Made by a program: the position numbers and the translations under genes
DNA from: Candidatus Eiseniibacteriota bacterium
GTDB lineage: Bacteria > Eisenbacteria > RBG-16-71-46 > DASYSL01
DNA: 64,000 bases
NCBI GenBank assembly: GCA_031431875.1
Contig: JANPEF010000061.1
Span: 15,764 to 79,763 of the forward strand
Direction: 5' to 3'
In this document: piece after piece, positions 36,539 through 63,191 of the stretch
Layout: each line of letters opens with the position of its first letter
Position numbering within the stretch: position 1 is the stretch's first letter
The notes under the pieces: model-generated
Told to the model about the DNA's origin: nothing
Seen by the model: only the letters and a program-made list of their open reading frames with translations
Database searches by the model: none

Positions 36539-37554
36539 CGACGATGAACGAAGGCAACAGTTTCTTCCCGGTCCTGCTCGGGATCTTTGCCGTCCTCGGG
36601 CTCATCACGCTGGCGCGCACGGCGCGCATCGTGAACCAGTACGAGAAGGCGCTGGTCATGCGCCTGGGCAAGTACAAGTGCACGGTCGACTCGGGTCTGA
36701 CCTTTCTCGCGCCGTTCATCGAGGACATGATCAAGGTCGACATGCGCGAGAAGGTGATCAACGTCGAGCCGCAGAAGGTCATCACCAAGGACAACGTGAC
36801 CGTCATCGTCGATGCCGTCATCTACTACAAGGTGATCGACCCGGTGAAGACCGAGTTCGAGGTGCAGAACTTCGGCTATGCCTGCACCACGCTGGCGCAG
36901 ACCAACCTGCGCAACCTGATCGGCGACCGCACGCTCGACGAGACGCTGGTCGCCCGCGACATGATCAACACCAACCTCCGCCTCGTCCTCGACGAGGCGA
37001 CGAACCTGTGGGGCGTCAAGGTGACGCGCGTCGAGGTGCAGAAGATCGACCCGCCGGTCGACATCACCGAGGCGATGTCGCGGCAGATGAAGGCCGAGCG
37101 CGACAAGCGCGCCTCGATCCTCGAATCCGAGGGCTTCAAGCAGAGCCAGATCCTGCAGGCCGAGGGCGTCAAGCAGGCCGACATCCTGCGCGCCGAGGGC
37201 GAGGCCCAGGCCCGCGTGACGCGCGCCAACGCCGAGGCCGAGGCGATCAAGCTGGTTTCGACCGCCGCCGAGACGTACTTCAAGGACCGCGCCGAGGTGA
37301 TGCGTCGCCTCGAAGTGCTGAACCACACCCTGTCGGAGAACACGAAGTTCGTGCTGCCGTCGAACGGCGAGTTCGTCAACGTGCTCGGGCTGGGCGATGC
37401 CGGTGGTGGCGGTGGTCGTCGCCGTGGCGGGGATGACGGCGGGAGCGGTGGCGGTGGCAAGGGCGGCTCCGGCGGTTCTTCAGGCCCGAGCGGCGGGATG
37501 GGTGGCGGCTTCGGCGGCGGCGAGATCCCGGTCGTGCCCCTGCGCCGCTCGTGA
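36535..37554 (+). CDS. SPFH/band-7 (stomatin/HflK-C-like) protein with Gly-rich C-terminal tail
   Basis: N-terminal transmembrane helix; SPFH core ARIVNQYEKALVMRLGKY...; coiled-coil EAQARVTRANAEAEAIK; GGGGGRRRGGDDGGSGGGGKGGSGGSSG tail. Confidence 0.8.
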   Translation: MTTMNEGNSFFPVLLGIFAVLGLITLARTARIVNQYEKALVMRLGKYKCTVDSGLTFLAPFIEDMIKVDMREKVINVEPQKVITKDNVTVIVDAVIYYKVIDPVKTEFEVQNFGYACTTLAQTNLRNLIGDRTLDETLVARDMINTNLRLVLDEATNLWGVKVTRVEVQKIDPPVDITEAMSRQMKAERDKRASILESEGFKQSQILQAEGVKQADILRAEGEAQARVTRANAEAEAIKLVSTAAETYFKDRAEVMRRLEVLNHTLSENTKFVLPSNGEFVNVLGLGDAGGGGGRRRGGDDGGSGGGGKGGSGGSSGPSGGMGGGFGGGEIPVVPLRRS

Positions 37555-39306: not shown

Positions 39307-40667
39307 CAGTGAACGACTCCTTCCGGAATGGCCGCGCCGGGACCGGGGCCCGACGGCGGAGCGAACCCCGCGGCCGCATGTCTGGCGGACAGCGGAGTGA
39401 CGAACGGCAGGATGAGCAGGCACACCAGGCCGAAGGCCGCGTCGAACCCGAGGGTGAGAGGATACCCGAATCGCTCGATCGAGTGGCCCTGCCACCACGC
39501 GGCCATCGAGGAGGCCAGGTTGCACAGGGCCATGTACGCGGTGAACTGGGTGGCGGCCACGCGCGGCGTCGTGATGTCCATGTAGAGCGCGGTGCCCGCG
39601 CCGTACATGAGGCCCTGCGCGATGTAGTACGAGAGGCAGGCGGTCCAGAACGCGCTGATCGCCGCCGCCCCGATCGCCCCGCCGGCGAGCAAGAGTGCGA
39701 GGCAGACGCCGGGCACGGACATCAGGGCGACGAAGAGCGCGATCGTGCGGCGGCGGCCCAGGCGATCCGACAGCCAGCCGCCGACCACGCAGCCCAGCGC
39801 CCCGCAGAACGACGAAGCCATCGCCAGCGCGCCGATGGCGCCGTCGTCCATGCCCAGCTCGACCGCGAGGTTCGATTGCAGCGCCAGGCCGAGGCCCATG
39901 GCGCCCATCGGCAGGAGCGCCAGCAGCACGCCGAACAGGGCGCCGCGCGAGCCGGTGAAGGCGTGCCACGACGCGACGAGGAACTCGCGCATGCGCGCGC
40001 CCGCCGCCGCCAGCGCCGCCGCAGGGCCGGCGCCGGGGCCGCCCGCGTGCGCCGCCGCCACCGCAGCCGTCTCGCGCAGGCGCAGCGAGACCACGATCCC
40101 GATCAGCGCGACCGCTCCGGCAACGACGAGGAACGTGGCGCGGAACGGCATGGCCGCGGTCAGCATGAGCACGCCGCCGCCGCCCAGTGCGGTGCCCACC
40201 GCTTGTCCCGCGAACATGACGCCGTTCGCCGTCCCACGTTCCTCGACGGGCAGCACGTTGCAGGCGAGCGCGTCGATCGCGACGTCCTGCGTCGCGGCGA
40301 AGGCGTTGTGCAGGATCAGGAGCCCGGTGAAGAGTGCGAGCTGCTGCGCGGGATCGACGGTCATGGCCACCAGCAGCGTGACGACCATGAGGCCCTGCGC
40401 CAGCACGACCCAGAATCGCCGCGGTCCCCAGCGCGCCACGGTCAGCGAGTCGACGATCGGCCCCACCGCCCACTTGAACGCCCACGGCAGGTAGAGCGCA
40501 GCGACGTAGGTCCCGATCTCCGCGGGACCCAGGCCCAGTCGGCGCATCTGTGTGGCCACGGCGACCACCGCGAAGCCCGAGGGCAGGCCCTCACTGACAT
40601 AGAGGAGGAAGAACGAGACGAGGCGGGCGCGACGCGTGCCGAGAGGGTCGGACGGAAGGAGGCGCAT
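39306..40667 (-). CDS. MFS transporter, PucC/BCD family, paralog B
   Basis: ~45% identical to paralog A by eye (LYLPWAFKWAVGPIVDS, DRLGRRRT); AAGGTG Shine-Dalgarno before ATG 40667. Confidence 0.7.
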   Translation of the reverse strand: MRLLPSDPLGTRRARLVSFFLLYVSEGLPSGFAVVAVATQMRRLGLGPAEIGTYVAALYLPWAFKWAVGPIVDSLTVARWGPRRFWVVLAQGLMVVTLLVAMTVDPAQQLALFTGLLILHNAFAATQDVAIDALACNVLPVEERGTANGVMFAGQAVGTALGGGGVLMLTAAMPFRATFLVVAGAVALIGIVVSLRLRETAAVAAAHAGGPGAGPAAALAAAGARMREFLVASWHAFTGSRGALFGVLLALLPMGAMGLGLALQSNLAVELGMDDGAIGALAMASSFCGALGCVVGGWLSDRLGRRRTIALFVALMSVPGVCLALLLAGGAIGAAAISAFWTACLSYYIAQGLMYGAGTALYMDITTPRVAATQFTAYMALCNLASSMAAWWQGHSIERFGYPLTLGFDAAFGLVCLLILPFVTPLSARHAAAGFAPPSGPGPGAAIPEGVVH

Positions 40668-58576: not shown

Positions 58577-59374
58577 ATGGATTGGACGGCGTCGGATCCC
58601 ACCGGCGTGTGGGCCCGTTGGCGCACCCGGACGCCGGACCTGCGCGCACAGATTGCAGACCTGCTGCAGCGGGAGCTCACGCTGCGCGGGCAGTCGCGTG
58701 TCGTCCTCGGTCTCTCGGGCGGGCTCGACTCCACGGTTGCCGCCACGCTCTGCGTCGACGCGCTTGGCGCACCAAACGTGCTCGGCGTGCTGCTCCCGCA
58801 CCGATCCTCCGACACGCAGGCACTGTCGTCCGCCCAGGGCATCGTCAACACGCTGGGCATCACCACCCGGCGCGTCAACGTGAGCCCGATGGTCGACGCG
58901 TACTTCGCGAACTTCCCGGATGCCAGCCGCGAGCGGCGGGCCGTACGCCTGGCCTGGGAGCGCCTGGCGATCCTGCACGACTTCGGTGCCCATTACGGCG
59001 GCATGGTGCTGCAGATCGTCAATCGCTCGGACCTGGCGCTCGATTTTGGCCCGGAGCCAAGGCTCCCGGCGCTTGCGGTGCGTCCGTTCGAGGGGGTCTA
59101 CAAGTCGCAGCTCCGCCTGCTCGGGCAGTCGCTCGAGATTTCGCAAATGGTGCTCGATCGCCGGCCGTCGCTCGACTCCTATCCCGGTCAGGCCGACGAG
59201 TCCGAACTGGGCGCCAGCTACGAGACCATCGACCCGGTGCTCGAGTGGCTGCTCGATCACAAGGGGACGCCCGAAAAGGTGGTGAGTCTCGGCTATCCCG
59301 CAGAGGTCGTGGAGCGGGTGCAGGCGCGACTTGACCGGCGTCGCGACAGCCCGCTGCCCGTCGCGCTGGCGTGA
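58577..59374 (+). CDS. nadE: NH3-dependent NAD+ synthetase NadE
   Basis: PP-loop SGGLDS; 265 aa. Confidence 0.8.
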   Translation: MDWTASDPTGVWARWRTRTPDLRAQIADLLQRELTLRGQSRVVLGLSGGLDSTVAATLCVDALGAPNVLGVLLPHRSSDTQALSSAQGIVNTLGITTRRVNVSPMVDAYFANFPDASRERRAVRLAWERLAILHDFGAHYGGMVLQIVNRSDLALDFGPEPRLPALAVRPFEGVYKSQLRLLGQSLEISQMVLDRRPSLDSYPGQADESELGASYETIDPVLEWLLDHKGTPEKVVSLGYPAEVVERVQARLDRRRDSPLPVALA

Positions 59375-59381
59375 GGCGGTG

Positions 59382-60281
59382 GTGAGCGAGGGCCCGCTCG
59401 AACGGGGCGCTCTCTATGTCGTGGCGACGCCGATCGGCAACCTCGGGGACCTGTCCCCGCGGGCGCTCGCGGTGCTGCGCGCCGTCGACTGGATCGCCGC
59501 CGAGGACACGCGGCACAGCGGTGGGTTGCTGACGCGCTTCGCGATCGAGGTGCCGCTGATCTCGGCCCACGCCCACAACGAGCGGGGGCGGGCCGAGGAC
59601 CTGGTGGCGCGGCTGGCAGCCGGATCGATCGGCGCGCTGATCGTCGACGCCGGCAGCCCGGGCATCAGCGATCCGGGCGCACGCATCGTGCGCCGAGTCG
59701 CCGAGGCCGGGTTTCCGGTGCGGGTCGTGCCCGGGCCGAGCGCGGTCATCGCCGCGCTTTCGCTCTCGGGATTCTCTGCCGACGCATTTACCTTCGGCGG
59801 CTTCTTGCCGCCGAAGGATGCAGCGCGGGACACGAAGTTGCGCGCCCTGCTCGCTCGGAGCGAGACGGTGGTCGTCTACGAGGCGCCGCACCGCGTGCGG
59901 GCCACGCTCGAGGCGCTGGCGCGGCTGGCGCCGGGCCGCCCGATGGCGGCGTGCCGCGAGCTGACCAAGCTGCACGAGGAGACGCTTCGCGGCGACGCGG
60001 CCGCGGTGCTCGCGCAGATCTCCCCCGAGCGGGAGCGAGGGGAGTGGGTTCTGGTGATCGCGGGGCCGGGCAAGGATGAGGTGGAACCGGCTGACGCGGC
60101 AGACGCGGACGCTGGTGCGGCTGGCGCCGGTGGCGCCGACATCGGTGGCGCCGATATGGATCCGCGCGCGCGTTATGTCGCGGCGCAGGTGGCCAGCGGC
60201 GCGAGCCCCGACGAGGCGCGGCGTCGCGCCGAGTTCGTGCTCGGCCCGGAGCGGCGCCGCCGCGGGAAGGAGCGCGCATGA
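59382..60281 (+). CDS. rsmI: 16S rRNA (cytidine1402-2'-O)-methyltransferase RsmI
   Basis: LYVVATPIGNLGDLSPRA...AEDTR; tetrapyrrole-methylase fold; Asp/Ala-rich tail. Confidence 0.8.
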   Translation: MSEGPLERGALYVVATPIGNLGDLSPRALAVLRAVDWIAAEDTRHSGGLLTRFAIEVPLISAHAHNERGRAEDLVARLAAGSIGALIVDAGSPGISDPGARIVRRVAEAGFPVRVVPGPSAVIAALSLSGFSADAFTFGGFLPPKDAARDTKLRALLARSETVVVYEAPHRVRATLEALARLAPGRPMAACRELTKLHEETLRGDAAAVLAQISPERERGEWVLVIAGPGKDEVEPADAADADAGAAGAGGADIGGADMDPRARYVAAQVASGASPDEARRRAEFVLGPERRRRGKERA

Positions 60282-60991
60282 ACGCCGGAACCGCGGCGAT
60301 CGATCGGCTGAAGGACGGCGGGCGGCGCGTGGTGCGCGGCCTGCTCGATCCCGTCGTGGCGCTCCTCGCCCGCATCGGTGTCGCGCCCGATCACGTGACG
60401 TGGACCGGCCTGCTCGTGACCTGTGCCGGTGGTGGGTTGTTCGCGGTCGGACGGTTTCGCGCGGGCGCGCTGGTGGCGCTCGTCGGTTGCCTGATGGACA
60501 CGCTCGACGGCGGCCTGGCGCGGGCGAAGAACGGCGTCACCCGCTGGGGCGCGTTCCTTGACTCGACGACGGACCGCATCGCCGATGCGGCGCTGTTCCT
60601 CGGGATCGCGGCGCACTACGCGCAGCACCCGCTGTCGCTTCTGAGCGACGAGGATCGGCTGACCGACCTGCTGCTCGGTCCGCCCCTGGCGACGGCGCTG
60701 GTGCGCGACGGCGCGGCCGAGGCGATGTGCTACGCGCTGCTGGCCCTGCTGGCGATGGTGGCCGCATTGATCGTGTCGTACACCCGCGCCCGCATGGAGG
60801 GCGTGGGAGTGGAGTGCCGGGCCGGCTGGTTCGAGCGGCCCGAGCGCCTGGTGGTCCTGCTCGGAGCCGCCCTGTTCGGTGCGGCGTCCCCGGTGATGCC
60901 GTGGGCGCTCGCGGCTCTGGTCGTGTTGTCTTCAATCACCGTGATCCAGCGCGTCGCGTACGCGCGATCGCGGCTTTCGGGCTCCGCCTGA
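60278..60991 (+). CDS. CDP-alcohol phosphatidyltransferase; probably phosphatidylinositol-phosphate synthase given the adjacent MIPS gene
   Basis: ATGA overlap with rsmI; D-x2-D-G-x2-A-R...G-x3-D-x3-D pattern (DTLDGGLAR...DSTTDRIAD); transmembrane-rich. Confidence 0.75.
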   Translation: MNAGTAAIDRLKDGGRRVVRGLLDPVVALLARIGVAPDHVTWTGLLVTCAGGGLFAVGRFRAGALVALVGCLMDTLDGGLARAKNGVTRWGAFLDSTTDRIADAALFLGIAAHYAQHPLSLLSDEDRLTDLLLGPPLATALVRDGAAEAMCYALLALLAMVAALIVSYTRARMEGVGVECRAGWFERPERLVVLLGAALFGAASPVMPWALAALVVLSSITVIQRVAYARSRLSGSA

Positions 60992-61024
60992 CGCGGAGCC
61001 GGTTCCCCAGGGAGGCTGTCCAAG

Positions 61025-62236
61025 ATGGGTAAGGTTCGGGTTGCGATCATCGGCGTCGGCAACTGCGCATCGTCCTTCGTCCAGGGCGTGCAGTACTACC
61101 AGAACGCCAGGGACGAGGACCGCGTGCCGGGCCTCATGCACGTGAACCTGGGCGGCTACCACATCCGGGACATCGAGTTCTCGGCCGCCATCGACATCGA
61201 CAAGAACAAGGTCGGCAAGGACCTCGCCGAGGCGATCTTCACCAAGCCGAACAACACGCTGAAGTTCTCGCCGGTGCCGAAGACGGGCCTCACCGTCCAG
61301 CGCGGCATGACGCACGACGGCCTCGGCAAGTACCTGTCGAAGATCATCCAGAAAGCGCCGGGCTCGACGGTCGACATCGTCAAGCTGCTCAAGGACTCGA
61401 AGACCGACGTGGTCGTGTCGTACCTGCCGGTCGGCTCGGAAGAGGCGACCAAGTGGTACGTCGAACAGATCCTCGAGGCCGGTTGCGCCTTCGTCAACTG
61501 CATCCCGGTGTTCATCGCCCGCGAGCCTTACTGGCAGCGGCGCTTCGAGGCGAAGGGCCTGCCGGTCATCGGCGACGACATCAAGTCGCAGGTCGGCGCG
61601 ACGATCACGCACCGCGTCCTGACCAGCCTGTTCGTCGATCGCGGCGTCCGCATCGATCGCACGTACCAGCTGAACTTCGGGGGCAACACCGACTTCCTGA
61701 ACATGCTCGAGCGCGAGCGCCTCGAGTCGAAGAAGATCTCGAAGACGAACGCGGTGACGAGCATGATCCCGTACGAGATGGACGAGGCGAACGTGCACGT
61801 CGGTCCGTCGGACTACGTCCCCTGGCTGCTCGATCGCAAGTGGTGCCACATCCGCATGGAGGGCACGACGTTCGGCGACGTGCCGCTCAACCTCGACATG
61901 AAGCTCGAGGTGTGGGACTCGCCCAACTCGGCCGGCGTCGTCATCGACGCGGTGCGCTGCGCCAAGCTGGCGCTCGACCACGGCCTCAAGGGCGCGCTGA
62001 TCGGACCGTCTTCGTACTTCAAGAAGTCGCCGCCGGTGCAGTACCCCGACGACCAGGCGCGCCAGATGGTCGAGGACTTCATCACCAAGTACGGGAAGAA
62101 GGGCGCCCGCAAGATGTCGGCGAAGCCAGCGAAGCCAGCGAAGCCAGCGAAGGCGACGAAGGCCGCGAAAGCCGGCCGTGCCGTGGCTCCGGCGAAGAAG
62201 GCGAAGCCCGTCACGAAGGCGGGGAAGAAGAAATAA
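61025..62236 (+). CDS. ino1: myo-Inositol-1-phosphate synthase with Lys/Ala/Pro-rich C-terminal tail
   Basis: GGGAGG Shine-Dalgarno; [18 protein letters not shown]...[12 protein letters not shown]...[12 protein letters not shown]; tail [38 protein letters not shown]. Confidence 0.85.
62121..62165 (+). repeat. 9-bp tandem repeat (CGAAGCCAG x3 plus two degenerate units) encoding AKPAKPAKP inside ino1
   Basis: cgaagccagcgaagccagcgaagccagcgaaggcgacgaaggccg. Confidence 0.6.
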
Positions 62237-62414
62237 CCCTTCCGCCCCGTTCTGGATGGACTCGACGAGCCCGGGAGCACACCCCGGGCTCGTTCGATCT
62301 CCTGCCGAGCGTCGCCTGTCGCTCACGATGGAGTGGCGCTGGCGTCGGGCGTGGGAGAAGCTTGACCGCAGGCCGGGCGCAGCGGGACCTCGCAAGGGTC
62401 CTCGAGAGGACATC

Positions 62415-63191
62415 ATGCTTCGACATCGCGTTGCGTTCATCACCATGGTCCTGGCCGTGCCCCTCGCCTTCGTGGCGGTGGGATGCGGTGACTCTCCCGC
62501 CGAGCCCCCGCGCGTCGTGTCCCCGCCCGAGCCCGAGGCGCTTCGAGTGTTCTTCGTCGGGAACAGCCTCACGTACGTGAACGATCTTCCGCAGATGGTC
62601 GCGGCGCTCTCCCGCGCGGCGGGGGACGACCCGCCGCTCGAAACCGGGAGCGTGACGTTCGGGGGCTATGCGCTCGAGGATCACCTGGCCGAGGGCAGTG
62701 CCGCGCGCGCCATCGCCGAGGGCGGGTGGGACGTCGTCGTGCTGCAGCAGGGCCCGTCGGCCCTGCCCGAGAGTCGAGTGAATCTCATCGAGTTCTCCGG
62801 CCGCTTCGCCACGCTCATCCGCGCCGCTGGCGCCCGCCCGGCGCTCTACGGCGTGTGGCCTTCGGAGGATCGAAGCTTCGACCTGGATGCCTGCATCGAG
62901 TCGTACCGGCGAGCAGCCATCGCCGTGGATGGACTCTCGCTCCCGGCCGGTGGGGCATGGAAGTCGGCGTGGGCGCACGATCCTGCGCTGCCGCTCTACG
63001 GAGCGGATCGCTTTCACCCCTCGCCGCTCGGCACGTACCTCGCCGCGCTCGTGATCTACTCCGAGTTGCTCGACAAGTCGCCGATCGGACTGCCCAGCGA
63101 GTTCGACGTCGCGGGATCGCCGCTGTCGATCCCGCAGGAGCAGGCGGCGCTCGTCCAGGCGGCCGCCGCAGCGGTGAACGGAACGGAGTAG
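62415..63191 (+). CDS. SGNH/GDSL-like hydrolase lipoprotein
   Basis: GAGAGGA Shine-Dalgarno; lipobox FVAVGCGD; FFVGNSLTY (GDSL block I), GGWDVVVLQQG, DRFHPS (block V DxxH). Confidence 0.65.
   Translation: MLRHRVAFITMVLAVPLAFVAVGCGDSPAEPPRVVSPPEPEALRVFFVGNSLTYVNDLPQMVAALSRAAGDDPPLETGSVTFGGYALEDHLAEGSAARAIAEGGWDVVVLQQGPSALPESRVNLIEFSGRFATLIRAAGARPALYGVWPSEDRSFDLDACIESYRRAAIAVDGLSLPAGGAWKSAWAHDPALPLYGADRFHPSPLGTYLAALVIYSELLDKSPIGLPSEFDVAGSPLSIPQEQAALVQAAAAAVNGTE

Follow-up and report, generated by a model that had tools for sequence, protein, structure and literature searches.

Why does a soluble enzyme of inositol metabolism end in a long, strongly basic tail, and what could such a tail be doing there? 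This question is raised by the ino1 gene in a stretch of 64,000 nucleotides from a Candidatus Eiseniibacteriota genome (contig JANPEF010000061.1, positions 15,764 to 79,763), the whole of which is called the window hereafter. The gene (61025..62236, + strand) encodes a 403-residue MIPS (myo-inositol-1-phosphate synthase). It is preceded, across a gap of 33 nt, by the gene of a cytidine diphosphate (CDP)-alcohol phosphatidyltransferase (60278..60991, + strand), and both open reading frames (ORFs) are present where a first-pass annotation of the sequence had placed them. As laid out in the following, the tail is with near certainty a real and gene-specific feature that is inherited within one MIPS clade, comprising proteins from Eisenbacteria, Zixibacteria, Ignavibacteria, and some other groups.

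The tail covers residues 357-403 (47 residues) and contains 16 lysines, two arginines, 14 alanines, and five prolines (34 % Lys, 30 % Ala, and 11 % Pro) with no aspartate or glutamate, which gives a net charge of +18. The first-pass annotation had quoted its sequence correctly and was right in recognizing a Lys/Ala/Pro extension, but the length of ~40 residues given there was too short. The extension past the end of Mycobacterium tuberculosis Ino1 amounts to ~47-50 residues (354/357-403), because the alignment to the M. tuberculosis structure (PDB 1gr0) stops at residue 353 and the last helix in an AlphaFold2 model spans residues 342-356. In this model, residues 359-403 are coil with a predicted local distance difference test score (pLDDT) <50 and without secondary structure, which we read as nothing ordered being predicted in the tail, and no more. 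The GC content at third codon positions (GC3) of the tail, taken in the coding frame, is 0.85. Across all six frames of the window, the tail is the sole Lys-rich stretch (at least seven Lys in 30 residues), and 33 of the 42 Lys-rich, acid-poor stretches in 725 kb of related loci are MIPS tails; the other nine lie dispersed, and most of them resemble frames that do not code. A proteome-wide habit of the organism was ruled out as the origin of the tail, as Lys-rich stretches are confined to the MIPS tail in the window and largely so in the 725 kb.

Relatives share this feature broadly. The MIPS of the window itself has no record under an exact-sequence look-up. All 120 nearest database homologues (75-100 % identity) run past the Ino1 core, and the tails of 119 of them have a net charge of at least +8 (median 62 residues and +17; lengths from 12 to 105 residues among the 120). 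At the species level, 80 species-representative genomes were compared together with the window (81 loci), and a basic tail was found in 44 of these loci. The medians are 32 residues and +14 in Eisenbacteria, 47 residues and +19 in Zixibacteria, and 46 residues and +16 in Ignavibacteria; basic tails are also present in single Acidobacteriota and Glassbacteria genomes and in several unclassified metagenome-assembled genomes. The 31 Chloroflexota orthologues and one Dormibacterota orthologue all have short neutral ends (median 13 residues, net charge 0). In a neighbour-joining tree of the 81 loci calculated from the cores alone, the 44 basic tails fall without exception in a single clade that holds just four non-basic members, and the simplest history is one gain followed by a few losses. 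The distribution of the tail is unreadable in a representative library clustered at 50 % identity, where the tailed clade shrinks to very few representatives: the long matches in that library are frameshifted read-throughs, inteins, or domain fusions, and most distant full-length MIPS are ~350-375 residues long.

What is conserved in the tail is its net charge, and what varies is its sequence, its length, and its Lys/Arg ratio. The tailed genomes span 36-74 % GC, and Lys and Arg are exchanged along this range while the charge is kept. Since net charge is flat with GC (rho 0.06) and the Lys fraction K/(K+R) falls with it (rho -0.58, p 3e-5), charge and not sequence is conserved. The least variable part is the extreme C-terminus, where positions -8 to -1 read K-R-[V/I/L]-V-[R/K]-K-K-K in the species set. 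This basic-hydrophobic-basic terminal motif occurs in half of the species-level basic tails, and such a pattern is met more typically in tails that bind membranes than in H1-like tails that bind DNA; the tail in the window ends in a weak version of it. Furthermore, many Eisenbacteria-type homologues have tails with a repeated [S/P]-x-N-G-[R/H/K] motif, often in several copies (e.g., SKNG and PSMNGR), and 'DPKGTE..LR', 'P-T-L-K-R-E', and 'GPVQVRVKM' also recur in tails of this type. Asn-Gly is a classic deamidation site. None of these recurring motifs is found in the sub-clade of the window.

The tail also bears the marks of how it is built. Tandem Repeats Finder detects an array of period 9 at 62120..62152 (3.7 copies, 100 % matches), which starts on a codon boundary, encodes (Ala-Lys-Pro)3-Ala-Lys, and sits in a degenerate six-unit array reaching ~62173. 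The perfect 9-bp repeats that had earlier been assigned to 62121..62147 are the same three units in another phase. Among the arrays in the window that score at least 50, this is the sole one with 100 % matches; other, imperfect arrays lie at 37093..37201 (33 bp x 3.3, 76 % matches) and at 40002..40069 (12 bp x 5.7, CGCCGCCGCCAG, 74 %). The proline codon CCA is rare, with seven uses counted in six neighbouring genes, three of these seven being in the perfect repeat units; that the perfect units share it suggests that one unit was duplicated recently. Tandem repeats cover 6.4 % of the tail DNA versus 0.45 % of the core DNA (~14x denser), and the units differ by lineage (9, 12, or 15 bp; for example, (KKPxA)5 in locus L019). 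A 96 %-identical relative (GCA_031413115.1, locus L081) has, like the window, six units at the same site, which are arranged as 27 bp x 2, with 18 bp inserted close to the C-terminus, outside the repeat array. Slippage or unequal exchange clearly shapes the tails over evolutionary time, and there is little doubt that in-frame short tandem duplications remodel the tail continually, with (AKP)3 as one recent case. The first-pass annotation had seen in the repeat a potential hotspot of slipped-strand length variation. Part of this stands, as repeats are enriched in the tails and arise independently by lineage; the equal number of 9-bp units in L081, the one close relative available for comparison, speaks against the rest. 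Because the unit is in frame inside a coding region, it offers no on/off switching, and because the repeat is in frame and short, it is regarded as a source of evolutionary length change rather than as a demonstrated hypervariable hotspot.

The enzyme that carries the tail is, as far as family membership can tell from sequence comparison, almost certainly a bacterial-type MIPS. The ino1 product matches Pfam PF01658 (Inos-1-P_synth) with E 3.8e-38 and 130.4 bits (Pfam gathering score 27). Residues 3-353 of the protein are colinear, without gaps, with residues 15-365 of the 367-residue chain of M. tuberculosis Ino1 (1gr0, E 5.7e-148), whereas a five-membered-cyclitol-phosphate synthase, second among the solved relatives, is weaker by 90 orders of magnitude (E 2.4e-58). 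The model TIGR03450, which was taken from its name to be the mycothiol-linked INO1 model, gives 542.4 bits and thus remains under its trusted cutoff of 638; the ino1 product is therefore placed outside that narrow equivalog. The GC3 of the core is 0.96 versus 0.85-0.90 in neighbouring genes, which is consistent with strong codon bias. The MIPS core of this genome shares 71-85 % amino acid identity with its counterparts in Chloroflexota, Zixibacteria, and Ignavibacteria, and such unusually high identity across phyla could stem from strong constraint or from lateral transfer.

The transferase belongs to Pfam PF01066 (CDP-OH_P_transf, E 8.9e-11). Its top-scoring NCBIfam model is the archaetidylinositol-phosphate (AIP) synthase model archin_ph_syn (NF040950, 146 bits, E 1.1e-42), followed by PIPSynth (NF045883, 142.5 bits, E 1.3e-41), the model for bacterial phosphatidylinositol phosphate (PIP) synthases. 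The bifunctional IPCT/DIPP synthase model (34.7 bits, E 9e-9), PgsA (27.5 bits, E 2.8e-6), and PssA (20.5 bits, E 4.2e-4) score far lower. The closest solved structure is M. tuberculosis PIP synthase (6h53, E 2.4e-23); further matches are Renibacterium PIP synthase (5d91/5d92) and a third PIP synthase that was crystallised as a fusion protein (6wm5). The PIP synthases 6h53, 5d91, and 6wm5 reach E-values of 1e-20 to 1e-23 versus 0.008 for PgsA (7drj). The CDP-alcohol signature motif, defined in PMC4634129 as D-x2-D-G-x2-A-R-x8-G-x3-D-x3-D, is intact at residues 74-99 (DTLDGGLARAKNGVTRWGAFLDSTTD). It was shown that R155 and R195 of M. tuberculosis PIP synthase bind the phosphate of inositol phosphate (Clarke et al., PMC4634129); in the alignment to 6h53, these correspond to R190 and R225 of the transferase, and S167, R170, and P188 correspond to S132, K135, and P153, with the change from K135 to R170 being conservative. 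On these similarities, the protein is very probably a CDP-alcohol phosphatidyltransferase that accepts inositol phosphate and is far from PgsA and PssA. The first-pass annotation was thus correct in pairing a MIPS with a transferase of the inositol-phosphate type (E ~1e-42 for the PIP/AIP models versus 3e-6 for PgsA and 4e-4 for PssA), and its alternative, a grouping with PgsA or phosphatidylserine synthases, is not what the profile hidden Markov models (HMMs) returned.

The HMM and PDB matches of the transferase fall into two stretches (residues 21-117 and 154-225), and these two aligned blocks span the six-helix fold of the solved structures; in a crude Kyte-Doolittle scan, clear hydrophobic segments appear at residues ~18-36, 40-80 (merged), 149-167, and 205-223. 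The two stretches are separated by an insertion of 36 residues (118-153) that contains six Asp/Glu and two Lys/Arg and lies between the third and fourth predicted helices. It is common to the transferases of L081 and of a more distant relative (L084), and is missing in the versions of Zixibacteria, Ignavibacteria, and Chloroflexota. The insertion probably explains why the transferase scores below the equivalog thresholds (see below). By analogy with the topology described in PMC4634129, it should sit in the loop between transmembrane helices 3 and 4 on the non-cytoplasmic side. Docking of the basic MIPS tail onto this acidic insertion was considered and rejected, as the insertion should face away from the cytoplasm and as Zixibacteria and Ignavibacteria have tails without it.

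The gene pair keeps its surroundings in relatives. The order Zn-peptidase, threonine aldolase, (nadE), rsmI, transferase, ino1, and tmk recurs in L081 and L084, including the overlap of rsmI with the transferase gene that is seen in the window. The transferase gene lies directly upstream of ino1 in at least 10 Eisenbacteria-type loci and within a few kb of the MIPS gene in Zixibacteria, Ignavibacteria, and Chloroflexota. Moreover, the order ino1, tmk, and an S41/PDZ (CtpB-like) peptidase gene is kept from Eisenbacteria-type to Zixibacteria-/Ignavibacteria-type loci (L081 6001-9620, L082 8001-13238, L083 8001-13229, and L084 8001-13880). Shortly past the peptidase gene, L082, L083, and L084 encode an MtnX-like HAD-IB phosphatase, which adjoins the peptidase in L084 and is set apart from it by TauE and a small ORF in both L082 and L083; the contig of L081 stops earlier. 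This phosphatase is a candidate inositol-phosphate or PIP phosphatase and would fall just past the end of the window. In the Zixibacteria-/Ignavibacteria-type loci (L082 5506-7821 and L083 1513-7843), a PIP/AIP-type transferase is paired with a PfkB-family sugar kinase, and a divergent TetR regulator lies directly upstream of ino1. The transferase of these two loci has 207 residues, lacks the insertion, and is clearly nearer to the archaeal AIP synthase model (130 versus 91 bits). This layout presumably represents a different organisation of the same pathway.

How could the tail contribute to this pathway? The soluble, NAD-dependent MIPS should convert glucose-6-phosphate to L-myo-inositol-1-phosphate, which the membrane-embedded transferase should then combine with a CDP-activated lipid to yield phosphatidylinositol phosphate. 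Together, the two enzymes should form the two-step bacterial phosphatidylinositol (PI) route, with the phosphatase not in view. The tail would act as a disordered electrostatic tether to a polyanionic surface, most plausibly the anionic cytoplasmic face of the membrane, and the four tails of a MIPS tetramer (assumed by analogy with known MIPS) would hold the enzyme beside the PIP synthase, thereby raising the local substrate concentration. We propose this tethering tentatively, as a reading that may well turn out to be wrong. The membrane is favoured as the partner because the product of MIPS is used there by an integral-membrane enzyme, because the acceptor site of PIP synthase lies where the membrane meets the cytosol and reportedly has a relatively low affinity for inositol phosphate (PMC4634129), and because many clade members bear the basic-hydrophobic terminal motif. 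A further-reaching version, which we consider speculative, is that the tail is a clade-defining device that draws MIPS tetramers to the anionic leaflet of the inner membrane, perhaps to PIP and PI, the highly anionic products of the pathway itself. MIPS and PIP synthase could then form a headgroup-synthesis 'metabolon' in which the supply of inositol-1-phosphate is coupled to membrane charge.

Several points weigh against this membrane tether or against parts of it. Nucleic acids, being stronger polyanions than membranes, would compete for the tail in vivo. The tail in the window has only a weak hydrophobic component. The AlphaFold2 model was built on a 51-sequence alignment and is mediocre overall (mean pLDDT 64.5); it was therefore used for tail disorder only. 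Tail-less Chloroflexota MIPS are likewise linked to PIP/AIP-type transferases, and the tail is therefore not needed for the pathway. As to the pathway itself, the transferase remains under the NCBIfam equivalog cutoffs of both inositol-type models (142.5 versus 170 bits and 146 versus 180 bits), and it is therefore named PIP/AIP-synthase-type here and not a curated equivalog. Its lipid donor could be CDP-archaeol or CDP-diacylglycerol, as the bacterial and archaeal types appear inseparable at the sequence level. Finally, no PgpA-like PIP phosphatase adjoins the pair or was identified in the window, the 64 kb of which were not fully annotated.

Nearly as likely as a membrane tether, and in our view possible but doubtful, is that the K/A/P tail binds DNA, RNA, or polyphosphate non-specifically and thereby localises or sequesters MIPS or adds a second role to it. 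Both the composition and the predicted disorder of the tail resemble DNA-binding tails of the PAKKA/H1 type, for which repeated evolution on unrelated proteins has been argued (PMC3553676), and nucleic acids are the densest polyanions of the cell. The known tails of this kind, however, ride on DNA-binding proteins, whereas MIPS has no known nucleic-acid function. A Pfam search with the isolated tail at E <=10 gave a noise match only (Bflower, E 1.8) and no similarity to H1, Hc1, or HU tails. The earlier label 'histone-H1-like' is not supported as it was worded: the likeness is one of composition, Pfam is blank on the tail, and the host protein is a metabolic enzyme. Moreover, the hydrophobic pairs in the terminal motif of many clade members are unusual for H1-like tails, and the neighbouring genes give no hint of DNA or RNA metabolism, rsmI and tmk, which are unrelated, excepted.

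It is rather improbable that the tail has no specific partner at all and is a tolerated low-complexity extension (a solubility aid or 'entropic bristle', or a neutral read-out of slippage) that is kept by mutational bias. The large variation in tail sequence and length among the 120 nearest homologues, the enrichment of tandem repeats in the tails, the four apparent secondary losses within the tailed clade, and the evident function of tail-less orthologues would all fit such a history. A neutral tail would, however, be expected to decay or to gain stop codons, whereas strong positive charge is found in 119 of the 120 homologues and in genomes of 36-74 % GC. That the tail is specific to this gene and not proteome-wide, and that its C-terminal motif is semi-conserved, argues in the same direction.

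A role as degron, in which an AAA+ protease or adaptor would read the basic C-terminus (..K-R-V-V-R-K-K-K or ..A-G-K-K-K) and set the turnover of MIPS, appears very unlikely. Basic C-terminal recognition motifs of ClpX of the MuA type (RRKKAI) exist, and conservation within the tail is highest at its very C-terminal end. A few residues would suffice for such a signal, however, which leaves 30-100 residues of conserved charge unexplained. No protease or adaptor is specifically linked either: the CtpB-like S41 peptidase encoded downstream in relatives is recognised by Pfam PDZ and S41 only, and we take it to be probably extracytoplasmic.

We give slightly less credence still to the 9-bp repeat being a contingency locus, that is, a fast-slipping hotspot that provides adaptive tail-length variants among strains. 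The perfect array with its rare CCA codon implies recent duplication, and the array of L081 is organised differently, with the 18-bp indel elsewhere in the tail in addition. On the other hand, the repeat is in frame, short, and low in copy number, its unit length cannot toggle expression, and the window and L081 are equal in total units. A metagenome scan with a 24-mer from just upstream of the repeat recovered no strain-level variants, its five matches all being chance matches in an unrelated 258-aa ORF. That the tail stems from misassembly, from a frameshift, or from fusion with a downstream gene, a reading for which no supporting point was found, is refuted by the tails in 119 of the 120 independent nearest homologues (from many assemblies) and in 44 of the 81 species-level loci, by the coding-frame GC3 of the tail, and by the same ino1-tmk order in relatives with no separate small basic gene; as the tail is common to relatives, the objection of an assembly artefact raised by the first-pass annotation fails.

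The features of the locus are collected in Table 1. The genes rsmI, PIP synthase, and ino1 look like a single compact co-directional operon: the stop codon of rsmI and the start codon of the transferase share 4 nt (ATGA at 60278-60281), and Shine-Dalgarno-like sites are found upstream of both the transferase (AAGGAG) and ino1 (GGGAGG). The 84 nt past the ino1 stop codon (62237..62320, hairpin included) fold at -40.6 kcal/mol (z=-3.5 versus shuffles). The hairpin was not called by a simple terminator scan because it lacks a T-run; despite the missing U-tract, the transcription unit probably ends there.

Table 1. Features of the ino1 locus, with positions numbered from the first nucleotide of the window.
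Feature	Position	Strand	Basis
rsmI (16S rRNA C1402 2'-O-methyltransferase)	59331..60281	+	TIGR00096, 224.6 bits vs cutoff 167.9
CDP-alcohol phosphatidyltransferase, PIP or archaetidylinositol-phosphate synthase type, 237 aa	60278..60991	+	Pfam, NCBIfam, and PDB matches
CDP-alcohol signature D74-x2-D-G-x2-A-R-x8-G-x3-D-x3-D99	60497..60574	+	Regular-expression match in the translation
Transferase insertion of ~36 aa (aa 118-153, net acidic)	60629..60736	+	Split HMM/PDB alignments
Shine-Dalgarno-like site (GGGAGG) 9 nt ahead of the start codon (ATG) of ino1	61010..61015	+	Sequence reading
ino1 catalytic core, aa 1-356, myo-inositol-1-phosphate synthase	61025..62092	+	PDB 1gr0, PF01658
Polybasic, predicted-disordered C-terminal tail, aa 357-403, plus stop codon	62093..62236	+	Composition, AlphaFold2
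In-frame tandem array of 3.7 perfect copies of the 9-bp unit GCGAAGCCA	62120..62152	+	Tandem Repeats Finder
GC-rich hairpin 3' of the ino1 stop codon	62262..62297	+	RNA folding

Two neighbouring genes show features of their own. RsmI has 316 residues in the window, 294 in L081, and 252 in L084; the residues past 250, where the family model ends, form an Ala/Asp/Gly-rich low-complexity extension (~60080..60278) that holds a small 9-bp repeat (60088..60108). Between ino1 and tmk, the window contains an ORF of 258 residues (62415..63191, + strand) with a lipoprotein-type signal (MLRHRVAFITMVLAVPLAFVAVGC), an SGNH-like 'FFVGNSLTY' block, and a faint Pfam match to DUF4886 (E 0.0046). This ORF is missing in the 96 %-identical L081 and in L082-L084, where ino1 is followed directly by tmk, and it looks like a recent insertion.

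Among bacteria, inositol lipids count as comparatively rare (PMC9246714). By sequence, a complete-looking module of MIPS and PIP synthase is indicated in Eisenbacteria, Zixibacteria, Ignavibacteria, and many Chloroflexota. We know of no lipid data for any of these groups with the module. The tail itself is a clean natural example of selection acting on charge and not on sequence: a disordered, fast-evolving extension built by slippage persists on a single metabolic enzyme in different phyla and over a twofold range of GC content. Should the tail localise MIPS, it would show how a soluble enzyme that makes a headgroup precursor is coupled to its membrane partner. Recruitment to the membrane would represent an undescribed organisation of inositol-lipid synthesis for the wider FCB group, in its uncultured phyla Eisenbacteria, Zixibacteria, and Ignavibacteria. 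Nucleic-acid binding would mean that 'H1-like' tails are not restricted to DNA-binding proteins and also occur on a core metabolic enzyme. Neither outcome would overturn the current understanding.

The closest known system is the two-step PI pathway, which has been described in Actinobacteria and in Bacteroides (BT_1523/BT_1526; PMC9246714) and includes M. tuberculosis PgsA1, Renibacterium PIP synthase, and Bacteroides BT_1523 with the phosphatase BT_1525. The locus shares with this pathway an Ino1-type MIPS and a transferase in which the signature motif and the two arginines for phosphate binding are present; the genes of the two enzymes adjoin each other, as they do in Bacteroides (PMC9246714). 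Unlike in those systems, the host lineage is uncultured (its nearest species representatives are labelled Candidatus Eisenbacteria), the transferase is sub-threshold and bears the 36-residue insertion, the MIPS has a polybasic tail that M. tuberculosis Ino1 lacks, and no PgpA-like phosphatase is seen adjoining the pair. AIP synthase (NF040950) provides the best NCBIfam model for the transferase (146 bits) and has the same inositol-1-phosphate acceptor chemistry; the score is under the cutoff of 180, however, and in a near-tie with the bacterial PIP synthase model (142.5).

For the tail, two kinds of known sequences offer themselves for comparison; a literature search for MIPS with a basic or extended C-terminus, or for inositol lipids of these phyla, returned nothing relevant among the papers covered. 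Like the PAKKA tails known from Hlp/HupB and Ku of mycobacteria, from HU of Deinococcus, and from the C-terminal domains of eukaryotic histone H1 (PMC3553676), the tail is K/A/P-rich, disordered, and terminal, evolves fast, and contains short tandem peptide repeats. Unlike those tails, which are found on DNA-binding proteins, it sits on a sugar-phosphate cyclase, has the tripeptide AKP and not PAKKA as its repeat unit, and shows no detected profile similarity to them, and many members of its clade add a basic-hydrophobic C-terminal motif. Polybasic or basic-hydrophobic membrane-targeting regions of peripheral proteins (MARCKS/K-Ras type; PMC10771482) resemble the tail, which is a terminal, unstructured Lys/Arg cluster on an otherwise soluble protein whose product is consumed at the membrane. 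The tail in the window differs from them in that a lipid anchor is missing and aromatic or hydrophobic residues are few, and its membrane binding is putative. The tail thus resembles known polybasic low-complexity tails and does not demonstrably fall within any described family. The two-step PI pair is the known part of this locus, and the polybasic tail on its MIPS is the new one.

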